From assembly GCA_040081465.1 (NCBI GenBank), contig JBEBGL010000007.1:35976-99975 (forward strand): a stretch of 64,000 nucleotides of DNA, in the 5' to 3' direction. Each line of letters begins with the position of its first letter. Within the stretch, counting starts at the first letter, position 1. A program made the translations under genes and the position numbers. Source of the DNA: Ilumatobacteraceae bacterium (GTDB lineage Bacteria; Actinomycetota; Acidimicrobiia; Acidimicrobiales; Ilumatobacteraceae). The notes under the pieces were generated by a model that was not told the origin of the DNA, made no database searches, and was given only the letters and a program-made list of their open reading frames with translations. Shown here in pieces: positions 2,221-26,973 of this stretch.

Positions 2221-3129
2221 GTGGCCGTTACCCGACACCAATACCGCATCTACATCAAGGCTCCGATCGAGCAAGTGTGGAACGCCGTCATCGATCCGAC
2301 GTTCACCCGCCGGTACTTCCACGGCACAGCGTTCGACGCGCCACCTAAGAACGGTGAGCCGTACTCGACGTCGACTGCCGATGGCCGTCCCGCTGTCGAC
2401 GGCACGATTGAAGTACTCGAGCCGCCGACACGCTTGGTGATGACGTGGCACACGCTCTACGACACCGCACTTGCTGCCGAGCCGCCCTCGCGCGTTGAGT
2501 GGACGCTGTCGGCCGCGGGTGATGGGTTGACGCAGGTCGATCTCTTGCATGGCGATCTCGCGCGCAGTCCGCTCACGTGGGCCAACGTTCGCTACGGCTG
2601 GGTTTGGATTCTCGACGGTCTCAAGACGCTGATCGAAACGGGCGAGGACTTGCCGCCTGTCGCTAATGGAGAAGAACAAGGTGGAGAAGACACCGCAGCC
2701 GAGTGGCATCGCGCGCAAGGCATCGAGTGCAACAACACCGCGTGGGAAATGATTGAGGGCGAGCGCACGCCAGAGAACGACGAAGAGATGTTGCGCAGGG
2801 CTTACGCCTCGACCTACCACTGGGCACGAGCGAAGGGTCGCACGCCGGCGAATGACGCTCGTGGGCAATGGATGCTCGCCAAGGTTCAACTCTTGGCCGG
2901 CTTCCCCGAGCGCTCGCTGCACTATGCCGACGCGTGCATGCGCTTGTGCAAGGAGCACGGGCTCGTCGACTTCGACCTGGCGTACGCGCACGAGGCCCGC
3001 GCGCGGGCGCTACGTGCGCTTGGGCACGAGCAAGAAGCGATGAGCGAATGGGCGGCTGCGAAGGCAGTTCCAATTGCTGACGACGAAGATCGTGAGATCT
3101 TGGAGAAAGACCTGGCAGAGGGACCGTGA
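2221..3129 (+). CDS. SRPBCC (AHSA1/START-like) domain protein with a helical C-terminal extension
   Basis: The N-terminal ~150 aa (IKAPIEQVWNAVIDP...) resemble the Aha1/SRPBCC fold. It commonly sits downstream of ArsR genes. Confidence 0.65.
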   Translation: MAVTRHQYRIYIKAPIEQVWNAVIDPTFTRRYFHGTAFDAPPKNGEPYSTSTADGRPAVDGTIEVLEPPTRLVMTWHTLYDTALAAEPPSRVEWTLSAAGDGLTQVDLLHGDLARSPLTWANVRYGWVWILDGLKTLIETGEDLPPVANGEEQGGEDTAAEWHRAQGIECNNTAWEMIEGERTPENDEEMLRRAYASTYHWARAKGRTPANDARGQWMLAKVQLLAGFPERSLHYADACMRLCKEHGLVDFDLAYAHEARARALRALGHEQEAMSEWAAAKAVPIADDEDREILEKDLAEGP

Positions 3130-3148
3130 CTCAGGCAGCCCAGATCGC

Positions 3149-3802
3149 CTAGGCAGCGATCTGACCATCAACCATTGCGATGGTGCGTTGGGCGATGTCG
3201 TCGACCCAGCGCCGGTCGTGAGTCGCGACGACGATTGTCGTGTCTGTGGCTCGCTCGTGCAACGTGCGCGTTAGTCGTGCAAGCTGTTCGTCGTCGAGAT
3301 GGGCGTCTGGCTCGTCGAGTACCAGAATGTCGGATCGGCCAGCGAGCGCTGCCGCAAGCGCGACGCGCCGACGCTGGCCGCCAGACAGCTTTCCGCAGCG
3401 CTCACTCGCAAGATCAACAAGGTCGACATCGTGCAGCGCGCGATGCACCGCGCCGCGCCGCACGCGTTCGTTCGGTGCCAGTTCACGCATGACGGCAATC
3501 AGATCGACGTGATCGAACACTGACAAGCGACGCGGCACACTGTCGTCCTGCGGCAGGTAACCCAAGCGGCGGCGAACGGCAGCAAGGTTGTTGTCCACAA
3601 CGTGTTCGCCGCCCACGACCAGCGTTCCCGCAGACGGCGCAGTCACCGTCGCAAGCAAGCGCAACAATGTTGTCTTGCCGCAACCGTTGGCGCCGATGAC
3701 AACAGTGATACCGGCACCGATCGTCAACGACGGAACGTGCAACTCGAAGCGAGGCCCGTTGCGAAAGGCGACGCCTTCGAGGTGGATGACTGGCGCCGTC
3801 AT
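3149..3802 (-). CDS. ABC transporter ATP-binding protein
   Basis: Walker A GANGCGKTT, signature LSGGQRRRV, Walker B ILVLDEP. The start is set at ATG 3802 (MTAPVIHLEG), which overlaps the upstream stop as ATGA. Confidence 0.85.
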   Translation of the reverse strand: MTAPVIHLEGVAFRNGPRFELHVPSLTIGAGITVVIGANGCGKTTLLRLLATVTAPSAGTLVVGGEHVVDNNLAAVRRRLGYLPQDDSVPRRLSVFDHVDLIAVMRELAPNERVRRGAVHRALHDVDLVDLASERCGKLSGGQRRRVALAAALAGRSDILVLDEPDAHLDDEQLARLTRTLHERATDTTIVVATHDRRWVDDIAQRTIAMVDGQIAA

Positions 3803-4500
3803 GCGTCGCTCCAACGGTCGAGTCTCCGACGGCCGATTACCAGCGTCACGGCCCCGGCAACCGCGACCACGGCGGCGCCCACTTGACCAATCACACCGAA
3901 CGGTGCGGTCGCGTCGTCGTTGATCTGTGCGACGAAGACGACCAGCGTCAGCCATCCCAATCCAACGCCGATTGCAGCGCGACGGACGCCGACATACGCG
4001 CCGACAGCGAGGGCCATCGATGTGGTTGCAAGCGCCGGCAGCATCCAAGCCAATCGCAGCCAGCCTTCGGTCGGCGAAGTCAGAACGGTCAAGAGCGAAA
4101 GCGCGGCGGCCGCGACGACCACTGTGACTGTGCGCAACAAGATCAAGCGCAGGCCCGAGAGCGGTGTTGCGACCGTCACTTCGTAGGCCCGGTCACTGTG
4201 CGGTCCGTACGCGAGTGCAACGCCAAGCACTGGAACGATCGGCGCGAGCGCGAGGAACACCGCGAGTTGGTCACCGGCTTCCCACTGTTTCGACCCGGCA
4301 CCGGCGGCCATCAGCAACACCAAGCCGACGGCGGCGAACCACGCCCATCGCAGTACTGGTGTCGCCGCCATCAGTCGCGCGGTTGGTTCCGGCACTCGCA
4401 AAGCCAGCAGCGCGCGTTCGAAGCGACTGCGCTTTGGCGCCGTGATCTCGCCCATGATCGCGTCGAGGTTGTTTGCCAAGCGCTCTTCGATCGTCCTCAT
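3799..4500 (-). CDS. Polytopic membrane protein coupled to the ECF sigma (putative anti-sigma or ABC-2-like permease)
   Basis: About 6 hydrophobic segments. It has 4-nt overlaps with both the sigma gene and the ATPase gene. I recognise no specific motif. Confidence 0.5.
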   Translation of the reverse strand: MRTIEERLANNLDAIMGEITAPKRSRFERALLALRVPEPTARLMAATPVLRWAWFAAVGLVLLMAAGAGSKQWEAGDQLAVFLALAPIVPVLGVALAYGPHSDRAYEVTVATPLSGLRLILLRTVTVVVAAAALSLLTVLTSPTEGWLRLAWMLPALATTSMALAVGAYVGVRRAAIGVGLGWLTLVVFVAQINDDATAPFGVIGQVGAAVVAVAGAVTLVIGRRRLDRWSDA

Positions 4501-5036
4501 TGGTTCACCTCTCGTAGCAGATCGCGGGCGCGTGAGAGTCGACTCTTAACCGTGCCTTGGGGAATGGCGAGCAGCACGGCGGCCTCGGCAGTCGTGAGTT
4601 CATCGATGTACACGGCGCTGACCACAGCGTGCAGTTCGGTCGGTAGTCGCGACAGCAAGTCGTACGTACGCGTGCCCGGCGCGGGTAGCGGCTCGGGTTC
4701 TGGCAGTTGCGCAACCGGAGTTGGGTGCGGGTGGCGCCGCAGATGATCGATCAGCCGACGCAGCGCAATCGACCACAGCCATGCGCCGACCTCGCCAGCT
4801 TCTGGGCGAAAGTTGCGAGCACTGCGCCACGCGCTTATGAACGTGTCTTGCAGCGCCGAGTCGACCAGGTCGTCGTCCGAGCATCGCGCCTGAAGCCGCA
4901 GCAGCAGCCAACGCGAGTGCCGGTGATATAGCGCCTCGAGCGCGTGCCGATCGCCCGCCGCCACGTCGGCGAGCAGCTCGGCGTCGGTGCGCTCGGGTGC
5001 TGCCACACACAACAGCGTGCCAGTTCCGGCGCTCAC
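4497..5036 (-). CDS. ECF-type RNA polymerase sigma-70 factor
   Basis: Region 2 (LVDSALQDTFISAWR) and region 4 HTH (LTTAEAAVLLAIPQGTVKSRLSRAR). Confidence 0.85.
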   Translation of the reverse strand: MSAGTGTLLCVAAPERTDAELLADVAAGDRHALEALYHRHSRWLLLRLQARCSDDDLVDSALQDTFISAWRSARNFRPEAGEVGAWLWSIALRRLIDHLRRHPHPTPVAQLPEPEPLPAPGTRTYDLLSRLPTELHAVVSAVYIDELTTAEAAVLLAIPQGTVKSRLSRARDLLREVNQ

Positions 5037-5992
5037 GCGTTGGCACGGCGACGCTGTTTGCGACTTTGCCGCCAGCCCCGCCAGTCTGAGCGAAGGCCGC
5101 GCATGGGAAATGCGAGTTGCTGCACGATGCCGTTGGGCATCTCAGTCGGGATGCCGTAGTGCTCTGGCCGCTGATCGCGAGGCATGCGGTAAGTGCCGAA
5201 CATGATGTCCCAAATCGGCAGGAAGATCGAGAAGTTGCTGTTGTGTGCTTCTTTGCGGAGCTCGTGATGCCAATGGTGGAACTCGGGTGTCATCACAACT
5301 GGCCACAGTGGGCGCAGTCGAAAGCGCACGTTGAGATGTGCGCCGAGGCCGACGAGAAACTGGATGATGGCCAGTGCACCCGTGATGCGGTTGTCGATGC
5401 CGGCAGCGACAAACAGCACGACGATCGGAATGATGAAGATTCCGTCGAATGGGTGCGCACGGAAGCCCGAGACCCAGTCGAGGTGGCGGGTGCTGTGGTG
5501 CACCTGGTGGAAACGCCAGAAGACGGGAACCTTGTGCGACCAACGGTGTGTCCAATACGCAAGGAAGTCGAACATCAGGAAGCCGCCGATGACCTGCGCG
5601 AGGGGCGGCAGCGAAGTGACAACTGGCCGCAGCAGCAAGCCGGGTATCCAGGCAAGTGACAAGAGGCCAAAAAAGAGTCCGACGACCAATCCGACGAACT
5701 GCAGTAATGGCTGCGTAGCGGCGTAGGCCAGATCGGTGCGCAACGCAAGGCGTCGGATGGGCACAGGGTGACGCCGGAAGAAACGTTCGAGCGGCCAAGA
5801 GACAACGAACAGCCCGAAGATGCCCGTCACCGCTTCGTTACCGACGAAGGCGCTGCCGATCGCGATCGCTGCCGCGATTGCTACGAGGATTGTGCCCCGA
5901 CGCGTGCGAGGGGCGGGTTGCCGTGTGTTGGCAGCGGGCGGTGGGAGTGCAACTGCAGGTGAAACGGGCGATGCAGTGAGGGTGAGGCTCAT
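5033..5992 (-). CDS. Fatty acid hydroxylase / sterol desaturase family membrane protein
   Basis: Three histidine boxes: HRWSH, HQVHH and HHWHH. Confidence 0.8.
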   Translation of the reverse strand: MSLTLTASPVSPAVALPPPAANTRQPAPRTRRGTILVAIAAAIAIGSAFVGNEAVTGIFGLFVVSWPLERFFRRHPVPIRRLALRTDLAYAATQPLLQFVGLVVGLFFGLLSLAWIPGLLLRPVVTSLPPLAQVIGGFLMFDFLAYWTHRWSHKVPVFWRFHQVHHSTRHLDWVSGFRAHPFDGIFIIPIVVLFVAAGIDNRITGALAIIQFLVGLGAHLNVRFRLRPLWPVVMTPEFHHWHHELRKEAHNSNFSIFLPIWDIMFGTYRMPRDQRPEHYGIPTEMPNGIVQQLAFPMRGLRSDWRGWRQSRKQRRRANA

Positions 5993-23315: not shown

Positions 23316-23777
23316 ATGGGTGAGCTGTTCGGAACACCCGCCCATCCGCTGCTAGTCCACATTCCGATTGTTCTGCTGCCGCTGCTATCGGTGATAGCGA
23401 TTGTGATGGCCGCAAAGCCAGCGTGGCGTAGTCGACTGACATGGCCGCTGTTGGCGGCGACGCTGATCACTGCCGCAGTGACCGTCTGGGCAACGCAGGC
23501 GGGCGAGCAACTTCAAGATGCGTTACAACCGGCGCTCGGTTCGAAGGGCGACCGGCACGCAGAGCTCGGCGATCAAACAGCGCTACTGGCAACCATCTTC
23601 TTCGTAGGCACGCTGGCGATGGCCGTGATGGACCGCTGGTTCAAGCGACTAACGCGTTCAGCAGTCGCGCTCGCGTGGGTCGTGGCAGTGGTCGGTGTTG
23701 TCACTGCGGTGTGGGTGATTCGGACAGGCCACGAAGGCGCCCGCATCACATGGGACGGCGTAAACGTCGGCGGCTGA
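23316..23777 (+). CDS. DUF2231-like membrane protein
   Basis: HPLLVHIPIVLLPL N-terminus and four TM segments. Confidence 0.55.
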   Translation: MGELFGTPAHPLLVHIPIVLLPLLSVIAIVMAAKPAWRSRLTWPLLAATLITAAVTVWATQAGEQLQDALQPALGSKGDRHAELGDQTALLATIFFVGTLAMAVMDRWFKRLTRSAVALAWVVAVVGVVTAVWVIRTGHEGARITWDGVNVGG

Positions 23778-23830
23778 CGAGCACCTGTGGGTCGGCGGTC
23801 CGCCAGATCAGTTCGTGGAATACTGAGCAC

Positions 23831-25048
23831 GTGGCAGATGACGCTGATATCGATATTGACGACGCAACCTTGGATGACTCCGAGCTCCCGTCAGAAGACG
23901 ACGACCAGCTATCGGAAGAGTCCGGTGAGCTGAGTGCGGCGGATGTCGAGCCACTTGTGCTCTACACCCTTGACTGGAGCGTTCAGTCTCTCCTCGAGCG
24001 AATCGGATCCACCTTCGACATCAGCCCAGCATTTCAGCGTCGGGACGCGTGGGACCGAACGCGCAAGAGCCTCTACATCGAGTCGCTTATGGCCGGCCTG
24101 CCAGTGCCACAAATCGTTCTAGCGGAAGATCGCGAATTGCGAGGTCGTTTCATCGTGCTGGATGGCAAGCAGCGACTCGTCACGATGAAGCAATTTGCGT
24201 CACCATCATTGACGTTTCCGTCGTTCCGGCTTCGGGGTCTCCAGTTCCTTCCCGAGCTGGACGGTAAGACGTTTGACGAGATCTTTAGCTCGATGGAAAC
24301 GAGCGAATACGCCGAGGCATTCCTAGCCCAACCAGTTCGGACAATCGTCGTCCGCAACTGGAAACGGGTCGAAGTGCTCTACCACATCTTCGTGCGACTG
24401 AATCAAGGAAGTGTTTCGCTCTCACCCCAGGAACTGCGGCAGGCCTTGTTCCCAGGACAGTTCACGCGTTGGATTGACGAAAGATCAGCGAAGAGCACGC
24501 CCATTCAGGGGGCGCGTCGGCTGAAACGTGAAGACTTTCGCATGCGTGACGCAGAGATGCTTCTGAGATACGTCGCGCTGGAAGATTCATTAGAGACATA
24601 CGGCGGAAACCTGCGATCGTTCTTGGACGACGCGTGCGCGACGGGTAACAAAAAGTGGCCAACTCGCGCGGACCATTACGCAGCGCTGGCAGATCGGTGT
24701 GAGCAGTCGATCGGCTCGGTCTTCGAGGTCTTCGGTGAAAATAGCTTCCTGCGATTCGACGGCGAACGCTACGTGCGTCGATTCAACATTGCAGTGTTTG
24801 ATGCTATGACCGTGGTTTTTTCCGATCCGGCTGTCGCAGCAATTCACCCCTTGCCGGCCGCCGAGCTACAAGCGGCTTACGAGCGCCTATCGATCGAAAA
24901 CGAGACATTCCATCGGTCCCTCATTTCGACGACGAAGACAACCTCCGCAACATTGGGACGCATCCTCTGGCTTGCGGAAGCGGTCGGAGCGGTGCTCGGA
25001 GTCAAGCCCGCGGTTATCGACCGAATTGACCAATCTAAAGTCAACTGA
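23831..25048 (+). CDS. DUF262 (ParB/Srx-fold, GmrSD N-terminal-like) domain protein
   Basis: FQRRDAW...YIESLMAGLPVPQIVL...VLDGKQRLVTM (DGQQR-type motif). The start is set at GTG 23831, where the composition drops. No DUF1524/HNH-like C-terminus is recognised. Confidence 0.75.
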   Translation: MADDADIDIDDATLDDSELPSEDDDQLSEESGELSAADVEPLVLYTLDWSVQSLLERIGSTFDISPAFQRRDAWDRTRKSLYIESLMAGLPVPQIVLAEDRELRGRFIVLDGKQRLVTMKQFASPSLTFPSFRLRGLQFLPELDGKTFDEIFSSMETSEYAEAFLAQPVRTIVVRNWKRVEVLYHIFVRLNQGSVSLSPQELRQALFPGQFTRWIDERSAKSTPIQGARRLKREDFRMRDAEMLLRYVALEDSLETYGGNLRSFLDDACATGNKKWPTRADHYAALADRCEQSIGSVFEVFGENSFLRFDGERYVRRFNIAVFDAMTVVFSDPAVAAIHPLPAAELQAAYERLSIENETFHRSLISTTKTTSATLGRILWLAEAVGAVLGVKPAVIDRIDQSKVN

Positions 25049-25058
25049 AAATCACCCA

Positions 25059-25670
25059 ATGGCGTCTCCACTCTTCGTGGGTCTCAAGACTTATCTTGCC
25101 CGGCTGGAGACGAGCCTCATCGCGGCAGTGAACGACGACAACATTTACTCGGACGCGGATCACGACCGCGCGTTGGGATACCGAGTCCTGTCCGCGGCCG
25201 CAATCGAGGAATTCATAGAGCAGAGGATTGGCGAGGGTGCCAAGGAAGGCACGTCCAGGTTCCTCAAGAATAAACCGACGCGTACGGGCCGATGTCTACT
25301 GATTTGGCACCTCGCTACGACATCGGTCGCCGCAATGCCGGTCAAAGAAGTGGAGCAGGTTCCGCACAAGGACCTCGTCGACTCGGCCCTCGATGCGTTT
25401 GAGAGCCGAATCAAGAACACACATGGCGCTAACCGAAGGGATGTCCGCAAACTTATCTATCCCATTGGCCTGGAGTCCGCACCTCAGATTGAATCGCTGC
25501 TCGATAAACTGCAGGCACTCGCGGATGCTCGCGACCCAGCGGTGCATGTAAGAATCAACCGGGCAAAGCTCATGGTGCCTCCAGCTGCGGAGGCGGAGAA
25601 CGTAAGGCAGATCGTAAGCGACCTGGAATATCTCGACGACGCGGTCGAGATCGCCGCTCAAGCCTTCTAG
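25059..25670 (+). CDS. HEPN-like protein (resembles the MAE_28990/MAE_18760-type HEPN family)
   Basis: All-helical, about 200 aa. An Rx4H motif RDPAVH is encoded at 25530..25547. It begins 10 nt downstream of the DUF262 gene. Confidence 0.55.
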   Translation: MASPLFVGLKTYLARLETSLIAAVNDDNIYSDADHDRALGYRVLSAAAIEEFIEQRIGEGAKEGTSRFLKNKPTRTGRCLLIWHLATTSVAAMPVKEVEQVPHKDLVDSALDAFESRIKNTHGANRRDVRKLIYPIGLESAPQIESLLDKLQALADARDPAVHVRINRAKLMVPPAAEAENVRQIVSDLEYLDDAVEIAAQAF

Positions 25671-25910
25671 TAGCGCGTTGATTCAACGACGGGATGCCGA
25701 CCTCTGCGGCACAGCATCCCCAAACTGCGTCACCCTTCGCCGGCGAAGTCTGAAAGAGGTGAACCCGGCGCAATGCTGCGCTGGCTCGCTGAACACAGAG
25801 CAATAGTCGGCAGATTCAGCCGAAATCGGCCGGTACCAGAAACAGCTGTCGGAGGACCGAATACTGCGATCTCCCCCGAGCGCAGGCTGTCTCTGTGGAG
25901 CTAGCCGCTG

Positions 25911-26186
25911 TTAACCGCGCCTTGAGAACAAGAAGTAGATGTACTGCGTGGAACTGCTGCTGGTCACTGCACCTGACCAAGCCTGGTGAGGTGTGCTCGC
26001 GGAGACGAACTTCCAGCCAATTTTCTCGATCTCCCCAATCCAGGTGTGGGCGACCGTTGAGACAAGATCGATGCCGAAGTACATGTGGCCCTCGGCCAGG
26101 GCGGCACGAGCTTGCCCTCTAGGCCCTACCCGCTCTGCCTCCTGTTCTCGCTCCTGTTGCTTCCTTTGCGCTCTGTTCATTTCCAT
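25911..26186 (-). CDS. Questionable small hypothetical ORF
   Basis: It is the only sizeable ORF in the 0.8-kb stretch 25671..26471. It has a charged N-terminus (NRAQRKQQEREQEAER). No family is recognised. Confidence 0.2.
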   Translation of the reverse strand: MEMNRAQRKQQEREQEAERVGPRGQARAALAEGHMYFGIDLVSTVAHTWIGEIEKIGWKFVSASTPHQAWSGAVTSSSSTQYIYFLFSRRG

Positions 26187-26471
26187 GCTGGCGCAGAGTA
26201 TCAATCGCTGTGGCCCCCTCGTTGCCGACTTCTCGTGCTCGACAGCGCTGCTCGCGCCGATAGACATTCCGGCGTTGTGGGCGAACGATCAAGGACGAAG
26301 GCAACGCCGCTGAGTGAGCTTGAAGCGAACGACCGCTTGATGGGCCGAGAAGTCGGTCGCTCACAATGGCAATGGTTCGCCCGTCACTCACGTCACCCGC
26401 GAGTCAACGTCGCTATTTCCGAGGTGGAAGCGTTCCGGAGAGTGTGAAATCGCTCGTGTCGGAGGACTGAC

Positions 26472-26954
26472 CTAGCTGCGCAGCTTCACCACTGTGTCGA
26501 TCTCGACGCTTGCGCCGCTTGGCAGCGCGGCTACGCCGATTGCTGAACGTGCTGGCAGGTGGTCGGCTCCGAAGATCGACAACAGCAACTCCGATGCGCC
26601 GTTCATCACTAGCGGCGGGTCTTTGAACTCGGGCTTGCAGCGAACGAAACCCATCAGCTTCACGAAGCGGTCGACGCGGTCGAGGCTGCCGCCCAGCGCG
26701 CCCTTCAGATTCGCGAGCGTGCACAACATCGCCAGCGCGGCTGACTTCTTGGCTTCTTCAACATCTAGTTCGTCACCCACCGAGCCTGCGTAGGCGAGCT
26801 TCCACGGCGGACCCTCCACAGCGACGATGCCAGACGTGTATGCGGTTAAGCCATCGAACGCGACACCAGGAAATAGAGCATGAGCCGGCAGTGGCGGCGG
26901 AATCACGATGCCTGCAGCTTCTACACGTTCGTCCCAACTCGGTTGCTTGGTCAT
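26472..26954 (-). CDS. RidA/YjgF family protein
   Basis: The C-terminal ARSAIGVAALPSGASVEIDTVV pattern is typical of RidA. The start is ATG 26954 or 26966. Confidence 0.8.
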   Translation of the reverse strand: MTKQPSWDERVEAAGIVIPPPLPAHALFPGVAFDGLTAYTSGIVAVEGPPWKLAYAGSVGDELDVEEAKKSAALAMLCTLANLKGALGGSLDRVDRFVKLMGFVRCKPEFKDPPLVMNGASELLLSIFGADHLPARSAIGVAALPSGASVEIDTVVKLRS

Positions 26955-26957
26955 GGA

Positions 26958-26973
26958 AATCAGCATACTCAAT
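26958..26973. promoter_or_regulatory. Operator-like quasi-palindrome, site 2 (AATCAGCATACTCAAT)
   Basis: It lies in the divergent region between the RidA and CMD-family genes. Confidence 0.35.

Follow-up and report, generated by a model that had tools for sequence, protein, structure and literature searches.

A probable two-gene anti-phage module of the PD-T4-2 type, a DUF262 gene paired with a HEPN gene, in an inserted segment of an Ilumatobacteraceae genome

We analyzed a pair of adjacent genes, here called gene 1 and gene 2, within a stretch of 64,000 nucleotides (the window) from an Ilumatobacteraceae bacterium (GenBank assembly GCA_040081465.1, contig JBEBGL010000007.1, positions 35,976 to 99,975 of the forward strand). 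Gene 1 encodes a ParB-fold protein of the DUF262 family that has an intact nucleotide pocket and no nuclease domain, gene 2 encodes a HEPN protein with residues of the catalytic type, and the two are inherited and transferred as a unit. We conclude that the pair was horizontally acquired and is probably a self-contained anti-phage module of two genes, of the PD-T4-2 type, in which the DUF262 protein, as a sensor, would license the HEPN protein, as an RNase. The core of this reading, a defence module with a nuclease-less DUF262 sensor and a HEPN effector supplied in trans, had been put forward in an earlier note made from the nucleotide sequence, and it is supported by the invariant Rx4H residues, the PF18735 matches within the family, the linkage of the two genes, and the comparison with relatives that lack them. 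The gene coordinates and lengths given in that note stand as well, and the gap between the two co-directional genes is exactly 10 nt. The positions of all features are listed in Table 1.

In Pfam, gene 1 matched a single family, PF03235 (GmrSD_N, or DUF262), with an E-value of 3e-20. The DUF1524/HNH nuclease domain (PF07510) gave no Pfam match in gene 1 or gene 2, even at E ≤ 1, and none was found in the flanking genes, so that both the family assignment and the missing nuclease half are as the earlier note had read them. Among the PADLOC profiles, gene 1 matched NsnA of the Menshen system (PDLC03877; E 2.6e-57, 192.8 bits) over nearly its full length (residues 33–378), and PD-T4-2_A (PDLC04027; E 4.3e-32, 109.6 bits) over residues 61–364, corresponding to positions 51–340 of the 363 in the profile. 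The family is large, with 2,487 matches at E ≤ 1e-10, and its closest members are Actinomycetota proteins of ~400 aa that are 55–64% identical to gene 1. Two alignments, one of 65 cross-phylum homologs (A3) and one of 53 close homologs (A4), were used to assess conservation. The three DUF262 motifs, which we took as defined by Li et al. (2025), with the role of motif II from the literature, are invariant in both alignments, as are many positions in the C-terminal domain. The segments FQRRDAW, GLPVPQIVL, and VLDGKQRLVTM, which had been singled out from the translation, are all present in gene 1.

The AlphaFold2 (AF2) model of gene 1, with a mean predicted local distance difference test (pLDDT) score of 89.4, shows an alpha/beta ParB-like domain that is preceded by a disordered tail and followed by a confidently predicted, mostly helical C-terminal domain. 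Its best fold matches in the PDB were BrxU (E 8.6e-4, probability 1.0), CDP- and CTP-bound ParB dimers, and SspE. For NsnA, a C-terminal DNA-binding domain termed ParBDB has been proposed (Li et al., 2025). Because gene 1 matches the NsnA profile over its full length, its C-terminal domain is probably equivalent to ParBDB, and DNA binding is a putative property of it. The acidic N-terminal tail reported in the earlier note recurs throughout the family: it is net-negative in 115/115 close homologs, with a median length of 39 aa, 37% D/E, and 2% K/R. In the model, pLDDT falls below 50 at residues 1–17 and 23–29. One gene caller placed the start of gene 1 at an ATG at position 23750, which gives a protein of 432 aa, overlaps the end of the upstream DUF2231 gene, and adds a basic MGRRKRRR leader. 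We prefer the GTG at 23831 because the acidic 40-residue tail then matches the tails of all these homologs.

Gene 2 belongs to a family of small proteins. At E ≤ 1e-3, an exhaustive phmmer search yielded 174 cluster representatives, almost all of which are ~200 aa long; a word-indexed protein search returned the self-match only, which is listed as hypothetical in an Ilumatobacteraceae metagenome-assembled genome. We compared two sets of relatives, namely 60 phmmer homologs with 22–44% identity (A1) and 64 partner proteins that were gathered independently via the gene 1 loci and are 15–36% identical (A2). E50, E54, G123, G137, R158, and H163 are invariant in A1, and the same six residues plus L16 and P175 are invariant in A2. 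R158 and H163 form the RDPAVH motif that had been proposed as an Rx4H RNase signature, and their conservation agrees with that proposal. E50 and E54, on helix 2, are candidates for additional active-site or dimer-interface residues. The profile PF18735 (HEPN_RiboL-PSP) was matched by 40/60 members of A1 (best E 5.5e-15) and by 62/64 members of A2 (best E 4.3e-17). A hidden Markov model of 62 locus-derived partners, built without the window protein, recovered gene 2 with E 1.1e-27 over residues 2–196, and the gene 2 subfamily aligned with the locus-derived partner subfamily at an HHalign probability of 99.9%. The AF2 model (pLDDT 94.9) is all-alpha with seven helices and places R158–H163 at the end of the helix spanning residues 142–163. 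As judged from sequence profiles and the motif, the assignment of gene 2 to HEPN is solid.

The two genes are tightly linked. With gene 1 alone as the query, we fetched 80 genome loci, of which three were cut before the site of interest and were uninformative. The loci span at least seven phyla, with members from Actinomycetota, Gammaproteobacteria, Cyanobacteria, Acidobacteria, Chloroflexi, Nitrospirota, and Planctomycetes. In 74 loci, gene 1 is immediately followed on its own strand by an open reading frame (ORF) of the gene 2 family, and in two more this ORF is cut by the contig end just past its start, which brings the pairing to 76 of the 77 informative genome loci. The same arrangement was found on viral contigs of IMG/VR, in 13/13 informative cases. 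The co-occurrence of the two families as neighbours, which the earlier note had proposed to examine, is therefore nearly complete. The single exception, in Cronbergia sp. (L049, 7134–7290), retains only some 11 codons from the start of gene 2, next to an intact DUF262 gene; in two further loci (L057 and L075), the gene 2 ORFs are truncated or split, again beside an intact DUF262 gene. These cases suggest that the HEPN effector is the costly component and decays first.

Preferential decay of gene 2 in these three loci, as expected of a costly HEPN, would also fit a toxin–antitoxin (TA) or addiction module, with gene 2 as a HEPN RNase toxin, gene 1 as the antitoxin or regulator, and the stabilization of mobile DNA as the main role. 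Cognate pairs that include a HEPN toxin are familiar (HepT–MNT), and the module is compact, co-directional, mobile, and closed up to a 10-nt gap. A 3.9-kb plasmid of E. coli, pLR-27_3 (NZ_AP027509.1; L113), carries little beyond a DUF262–HEPN pair at 52–1755, a VbhA-family antitoxin gene, and a replication gene. We nevertheless consider a pure TA role unlikely. The supposed antitoxin is a protein of 400 aa in which the motifs of the NTP (nucleoside triphosphate) pocket and many C-terminal positions do not vary across phyla, which argues for an enzyme or a sensor rather than a neutralizer, and the homologous PD-T4-2 confers phage protection. Moreover, the TA idea is not exclusive of defence, as many TA-like systems are abortive-infection defences.

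Linkage also bears on the idea that gene 1 is the remnant of a Menshen system (NsnABC) that has lost NsnB and NsnC, with gene 2 as an unrelated neighbour. NsnA is indeed the top PADLOC match of gene 1, at 192.8 bits compared with 109.6 for PD-T4-2_A. However, NsnA outscores PD-T4-2_A in 65/65 members of the gene 1 family and on each tested DUF262 protein with a HEPN partner (the window, 23831–25045; L080; L082; and L113), so that the ranking does not discriminate. The HEPN gene follows directly in nearly every informative locus, and clustering of all neighbouring ORFs of the 80 loci revealed no third gene conserved across lineages, but lineage-specific synteny only; an NsnB-like ATPase was not among these ORFs. 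We give almost no credence to the remnant idea. For the same reason, we rejected the bit scores as an argument that the pair is closer to Menshen than to PD-T4-2: the DUF262 protein of plasmid pLR-27_3, whose partner is PD-T4-2_B-positive, shows the same ranking. In RefSeq, this partner is annotated as a "HEPN domain-containing protein".

The composition of the locus and, as the stronger evidence, its comparison with relatives point to an insertion. The GC content of the pair is 0.568, compared with a window mean of 0.612 (z = -2.5). This drop, which had been noticed right after the DUF2231 gene, is real and modest; the pair has the lowest GC content among all 1840-nt windows of the 64 kb, the minimum starting at position 23801. 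At third codon positions, the GC content of the pair is 0.64–0.68, compared with 0.69–0.80 in the flanking genes. By scanning metagenome contigs with the small lipoprotein-like gene upstream of DUF2231, we found six syntenic contigs (L086–L091) from three related lineages, with flank proteins 67–93% identical. All six lack gene 1, gene 2, and orf118, a small predicted ORF on the 3' side of the pair, and only 3–48 nt separate the DUF2231 gene from the convergent RidA-like gene. On the upstream side, the relatives share the order SDR, CoA-transferase III, ferredoxin, amidohydrolase, lipoprotein, and DUF2231; on the downstream side, they share the convergent RidA-like gene, CMD, HbpS-like, gamma-glutamyltransferase, and amidohydrolase. 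Because of the low GC content and the clean junctions, we favour an insertion in the lineage of the window over a deletion in the ancestor of the relatives, in agreement with the insertion suspected in the earlier note.

Copies of the pair are present on plasmids and in phage records. Across 31 non-redundant loci, the neighbours include the BREX protein BrxC, type IV restriction enzymes, cytosine methyltransferases, and DrmD-like (DISARM-like) proteins. In Amycolatopsis orientalis (CP016174.1, 246–9900; L082), the neighbours of the pair are a PycTM protein, GmrSD_C (DUF1524) as a stand-alone protein, and a Prim-Pol/DUF3631 element; such a neighbourhood looks like a mobile defence island, in contrast to the metabolic context of the window. 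Seven actinobacterial loci (L005, at 2771–5911; L006; L017; L023; L029; L065; and L066) have in common a gene for a protein of ~1046 aa that is no more than 4 kb away from the pair. On the conjugative plasmid pWB1 of Rhodococcus sp. WB1 (L114, 5947–7107), a 40%-identical DUF262 gene adjoins an IS5 transposase, and the PLSDB gene table, the only source consulted for this point, shows no gene for ~800 nt downstream of it. The enterobacterial pair of Pluralibacter gave no match in a blastn search of complete E. coli genomes.

The surroundings of the pair in the window are of a different kind. Its flanks consist of metabolic genes, with no transposase and, as the earlier note had stated, no integrase or methylase adjacent; no tRNA gene was found nearby. 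Gene 1 begins 53 nt downstream of the co-directional DUF2231 gene, and a promoter and terminator scan around the pair was uninformative, with no promoter-like site detected. These metabolic neighbours, the short distance to DUF2231, and the negative promoter scan would be compatible with a housekeeping or other non-defence role, for instance in RNA processing coupled to partition-like DNA binding. Such a role is very unlikely, as the pair is absent from the close syntenic relatives, has a patchy distribution over phyla, occurs on viral contigs, on plasmids, and beside BREX or restriction genes, and is homologous to the validated defence system PD-T4-2.

The combination of the two domains has a history, contrary to the impression in the earlier note that the pairing lacked experimental characterization. 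Anantharaman et al. (2013) listed a "Ribo L-PSP-HEPN ... operon with ParB", and Vassallo et al. (2022) described PD-T4-2 from E. coli ECOR65, annotated as "DUF262, HEPN". PD-T4-2 protects E. coli K-12 against T4, and its deletion renders ECOR65 permissive, with plaquing restored (Vassallo et al., 2022). In the published HHpred analysis, PD-T4-2A was assigned to PF03235 with a probability of 99.7%, and PD-T4-2B to PF18735 with 97.8%, followed by PF18737 (MAE_28990) with 96.9%. Of the MAE_28990/MAE_18760 family named in the earlier note, MAE_28990 thus comes second there; the best-supported HEPN family is RiboL-PSP (PF18735). Reviews and the 2025 Menshen analysis treat PD-T4-2, Menshen, and Dazbog as DUF262 systems without DUF1524 that are largely uncharacterized.

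The pair shares with PD-T4-2 two genes in the same order, co-directional and tightly spaced, without a further obligatory gene. Component A is in both cases a DUF262 protein without DUF1524, and gene 1 as well as 65/65 of its family members match the PD-T4-2_A profile; component B is a small PF18735 RiboL-PSP HEPN with an Rx4-6H motif, assigned here via the family members. The proteins of the window are larger, with 405 and 203 aa compared with PADLOC profile lengths of 363 and 168, and the ORFs span 1.54 kb in ECOR65. The host here is an actinobacterium of the Ilumatobacteraceae, whereas the prototype comes from E. coli. In the wider gene 2 family, 21/60 members match PD-T4-2_B at E ≤ 0.01 (best 6.4e-6). 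As judged from these profiles, the relationship of gene 2 to PD-T4-2_B exists only at a remote, family-of-families level. The architecture is identical to that of PD-T4-2, and the pair is a sequence-divergent member of the PD-T4-2 type, not a new kind of system.

Menshen (NsnABC; Millman, 2022; Li et al., 2025) resembles the pair in its ParB-DUF262 protein, which has QRxxxW, DGxQR, and FxxxN motifs and a helical ParBDB-like C-terminal domain, and in the proposed logic of a DNA sensor upstream of an RNase effector. Unlike Menshen, the pair has neither the ABC-ATPase transducer NsnB nor NsnC with its inPIN-plus-nuclease architecture; a single-domain HEPN directly follows the DUF262 gene. GmrSD, BrxU, and SspE have the DUF262 NTPase/sensor fold in common with gene 1, BrxU being the best match among solved structures and SspE also being found. 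Their DUF262 part is fused to a DUF1524/HNH DNase acting on DNA, whereas here a separate gene for an RNase-type HEPN takes this place. Other HEPN RNases, such as DARNA/PD-T7-3, ApeA, HepT, Csm6, and Cas13, likewise have an Rx4-6H motif and become active upon an infection cue; one of them, DARNA, is a HEPN tRNase that can be switched by a nucleic-acid ligand, single-stranded DNA. They have their own sensor domain or another partner (MNT, cyclic oligoadenylate, or CRISPR RNA), whereas the presumed sensor here is the separate DUF262 protein. They also belong to other HEPN subfamilies, and none of them was a significant structural match for the gene 2 model.

The kinship with type IV enzymes raises the question of whether the DUF262 protein itself nicks or cleaves (modified) DNA, with the HEPN protein as a non-catalytic specificity or scaffold subunit or a nucleotide binder. 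ParB-like domains were placed among the endoDNase domains of restriction–modification systems (Anantharaman et al., 2013), BrxU, whose solved fold comes closest to gene 1, is a type IV enzyme, and PD-T4-2 was selected on T4, whose DNA carries glucosyl-hydroxymethylcytosine. In GmrSD, BrxU, and SspE, however, cleavage is assigned to the DUF1524/HNH half, with DUF262 as the NTPase and sensor, and that half is absent here. Furthermore, R and H of the HEPN motif are invariant in more than 120 homologs, which argues for an active RNase rather than a scaffold. DNA targeting by gene 1 itself therefore has only a slim chance of being correct.

Several observations weigh against the assignment of the pair to a PD-T4-2-type defence module. 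Gene 2 alone stays below the PF18735 cut-off (E 0.068; 13.5 bits compared with the required 28.4), matches PADLOC PD-T4-2_B with E 0.05 and 11.6 bits in its C-terminal third only, and is sub-threshold for every curated model in Pfam, NCBIfam, and PADLOC. Because it passes no curated HEPN model itself, its HEPN assignment rests on its family; the HEPN reading of gene 2 in the earlier note thus holds through the family and not by the single protein alone. A Foldseek search of the gene 2 model against the PDB and BFVD returned nothing significant (no E < 0.08), the HEPN toxin 7ae6_B reaching a template modelling (TM) score of 0.45 at a non-significant E of 1.5, and profile searches of PDB sequences with the gene 1 and gene 2 families were empty. 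None of the locus-derived partners (0/64) matches PD-T4-2_B at 1e-3. The HEPN protein of the E. coli plasmid pLR-27_3 is not detectably related to the gene 2 family; because it belongs to another subfamily, DUF262 sensors pair with diverse HEPN effectors. The pair lies outside any defence island of the Ilumatobacteraceae genome. In the literature searched, we found no mechanistic paper on PD-T4-2 after Vassallo et al. (2022). The function of the pair would be extrapolated from the tested E. coli prototype, from which the clade is distant.

We propose that a PD-T4-2-type module of this composition operates as follows. Gene 1 would act as the sensor and switch that recognizes invading, possibly modified, phage DNA. 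It would bind or hydrolyze an NTP at the pocket formed by QRxxxW, DGKQR, and FxxxN, and the resulting conformational change would license gene 2. Gene 2, presumably a dimeric, metal-independent RNase that uses R158 and H163 like other HEPN enzymes, would then cut host and/or phage RNA, so that phage production stops, probably with growth arrest of the infected cell. In GmrSD, BrxU, and SspE, DUF262 senses features of the DNA and uses NTP to control a nuclease. From the analogy with these enzymes and with HEPN RNases such as DARNA, we infer the step from DNA sensing to HEPN activation, including the trigger, the NTP dependence, the physical coupling, the RNA target, and the mode of immunity, which may be abortive or direct. 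From the composition and conservation of the acidic tail, one may speculate that it is an autoinhibitory mimic of nucleic acid. A further, tentative idea, to which we assign a small chance, is that the clade represents a mechanistically distinct "short-circuit" relative of Menshen, in which an NsnA-type sensor would be coupled directly to an RNase without the ATPase, and the tail would close the sensor's own DNA groove or the HEPN site until phage DNA displaces it.

The remainder of the inserted segment offers few clues. Its last 800 bp have no homolog anywhere. The predicted orf118 has no Pfam match and no homolog among 5.8 billion protein clusters, and it does not stand beside the pair at other loci; it is either spurious or a lineage-specific orphan. 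It lies within 610 bp that are enclosed by a 14-nt direct repeat, with the copies TGTCGGAGGACCGA and TGTCGGAGGACTGA, the second of which ends one base short of the insertion's right junction. This repeat may have been left by the integration event or by a second insertion nested within the first, or it may be due to chance. Its significance is doubtful, as 3.4 kb of sequence should contain about one such pair by chance; no other flanking repeats were found at the insertion. The RidA/YjgF (Ribonuc_L-PSP) gene on the minus strand at 26475–26960 adjoins the insertion, and it is fusions to just this domain that gave the HEPN family of gene 2 its name, RiboL-PSP. We considered a functional link between the two and rejected it: the RidA gene is native and is kept in the six syntenic relatives without the pair, so that the adjacency is coincidental.

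Table 1. Coordinates of the gene pair, its conserved elements, and the inserted segment in the window
Feature	Position	Strand	Details and basis
Gene 1	23831..25048	+	GTG at 23831, stop 25046-25048; 405 aa; ParB-fold DUF262 (NsnA/PD-T4-2_A-like); predicted sensor/NTPase
Acidic, predicted-disordered N-terminal tail of gene 1, residues 1-40	23831..23950	+	AF2 model, homolog composition
DUF262 (ParB/Srx-fold) domain, residues 53-207	23987..24451	+	Pfam envelope
DUF262 motif I, QRxxxW (Q69-W74, in FQRRDAW)	24035..24052	+	Invariant in A3 and A4
DUF262 motif II, DGxQR, here DGKQR (D111-R115)	24161..24175	+	Predicted nucleotide-binding centre; invariant in A3 and A4
DUF262 motif III, FxxxN (F187-N191, FVRLN)	24389..24403	+	F187, R189, L190, and N191 invariant in A3 and A4
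Helical C-terminal domain of gene 1, residues 208-405, "ParBDB"-like	24452..25045	+	NsnA/PD-T4-2_A profile matches, AF2 model; without nuclease motif
Gene 2	25059..25670	+	ATG at 25059, stop 25668-25670; 203 aa; all-alpha, divergent RiboL-PSP-family HEPN; predicted RNase effector
E50 and E54 on helix 2 of gene 2 (IEEFIE)	25206..25220	+	Invariant in A1 and A2
HEPN Rx4H motif RDPAVH (R158...H163)	25530..25547	+	Invariant in A1 and A2
Inserted segment, ~2.7 kb	23778..26471		Flanked by the stops of the DUF2231 gene and the convergent RidA-like gene; junction alignment
Non-conserved 3' part of the insertion, including orphan orf118	25671..26471		No similarity to any related locus
orf118 (118 aa)	25911-26267	-	Predicted by one gene caller, inside the inserted segment
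14-nt direct repeat TGTCGGAGGACyGA (family D7)	25847-25860 and 26457-26470	+	13/14 identical

For the organism, an uncultured freshwater or soil actinobacterium, the pair represents a clean, dated insertion of a probable defence module among core metabolic genes. The clade of DUF262–HEPN pairs to which it belongs is large, extends across phyla, and is under-annotated. The PD-T4-2_B models of PADLOC miss the HEPN partner, and gene 1 alone looks like an orphan NsnA of Menshen. A caller that requires both PD-T4-2 components would probably miss the locus or leave an orphan "NsnA", and such loci are likely under-counted or mislabelled in defence censuses. For this type of system, the conserved elements provide targets for mutagenesis: QRxxxW, DGKQR, and FxxxN in the DUF262 protein, E50, E54, R158, and H163 in the HEPN protein, and the acidic tail. 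If the sensor of this clade is indeed short-circuited to its RNase, the clade would be the simplest tractable model of how a ParB-fold NTP switch signals from DNA to a nuclease in trans.

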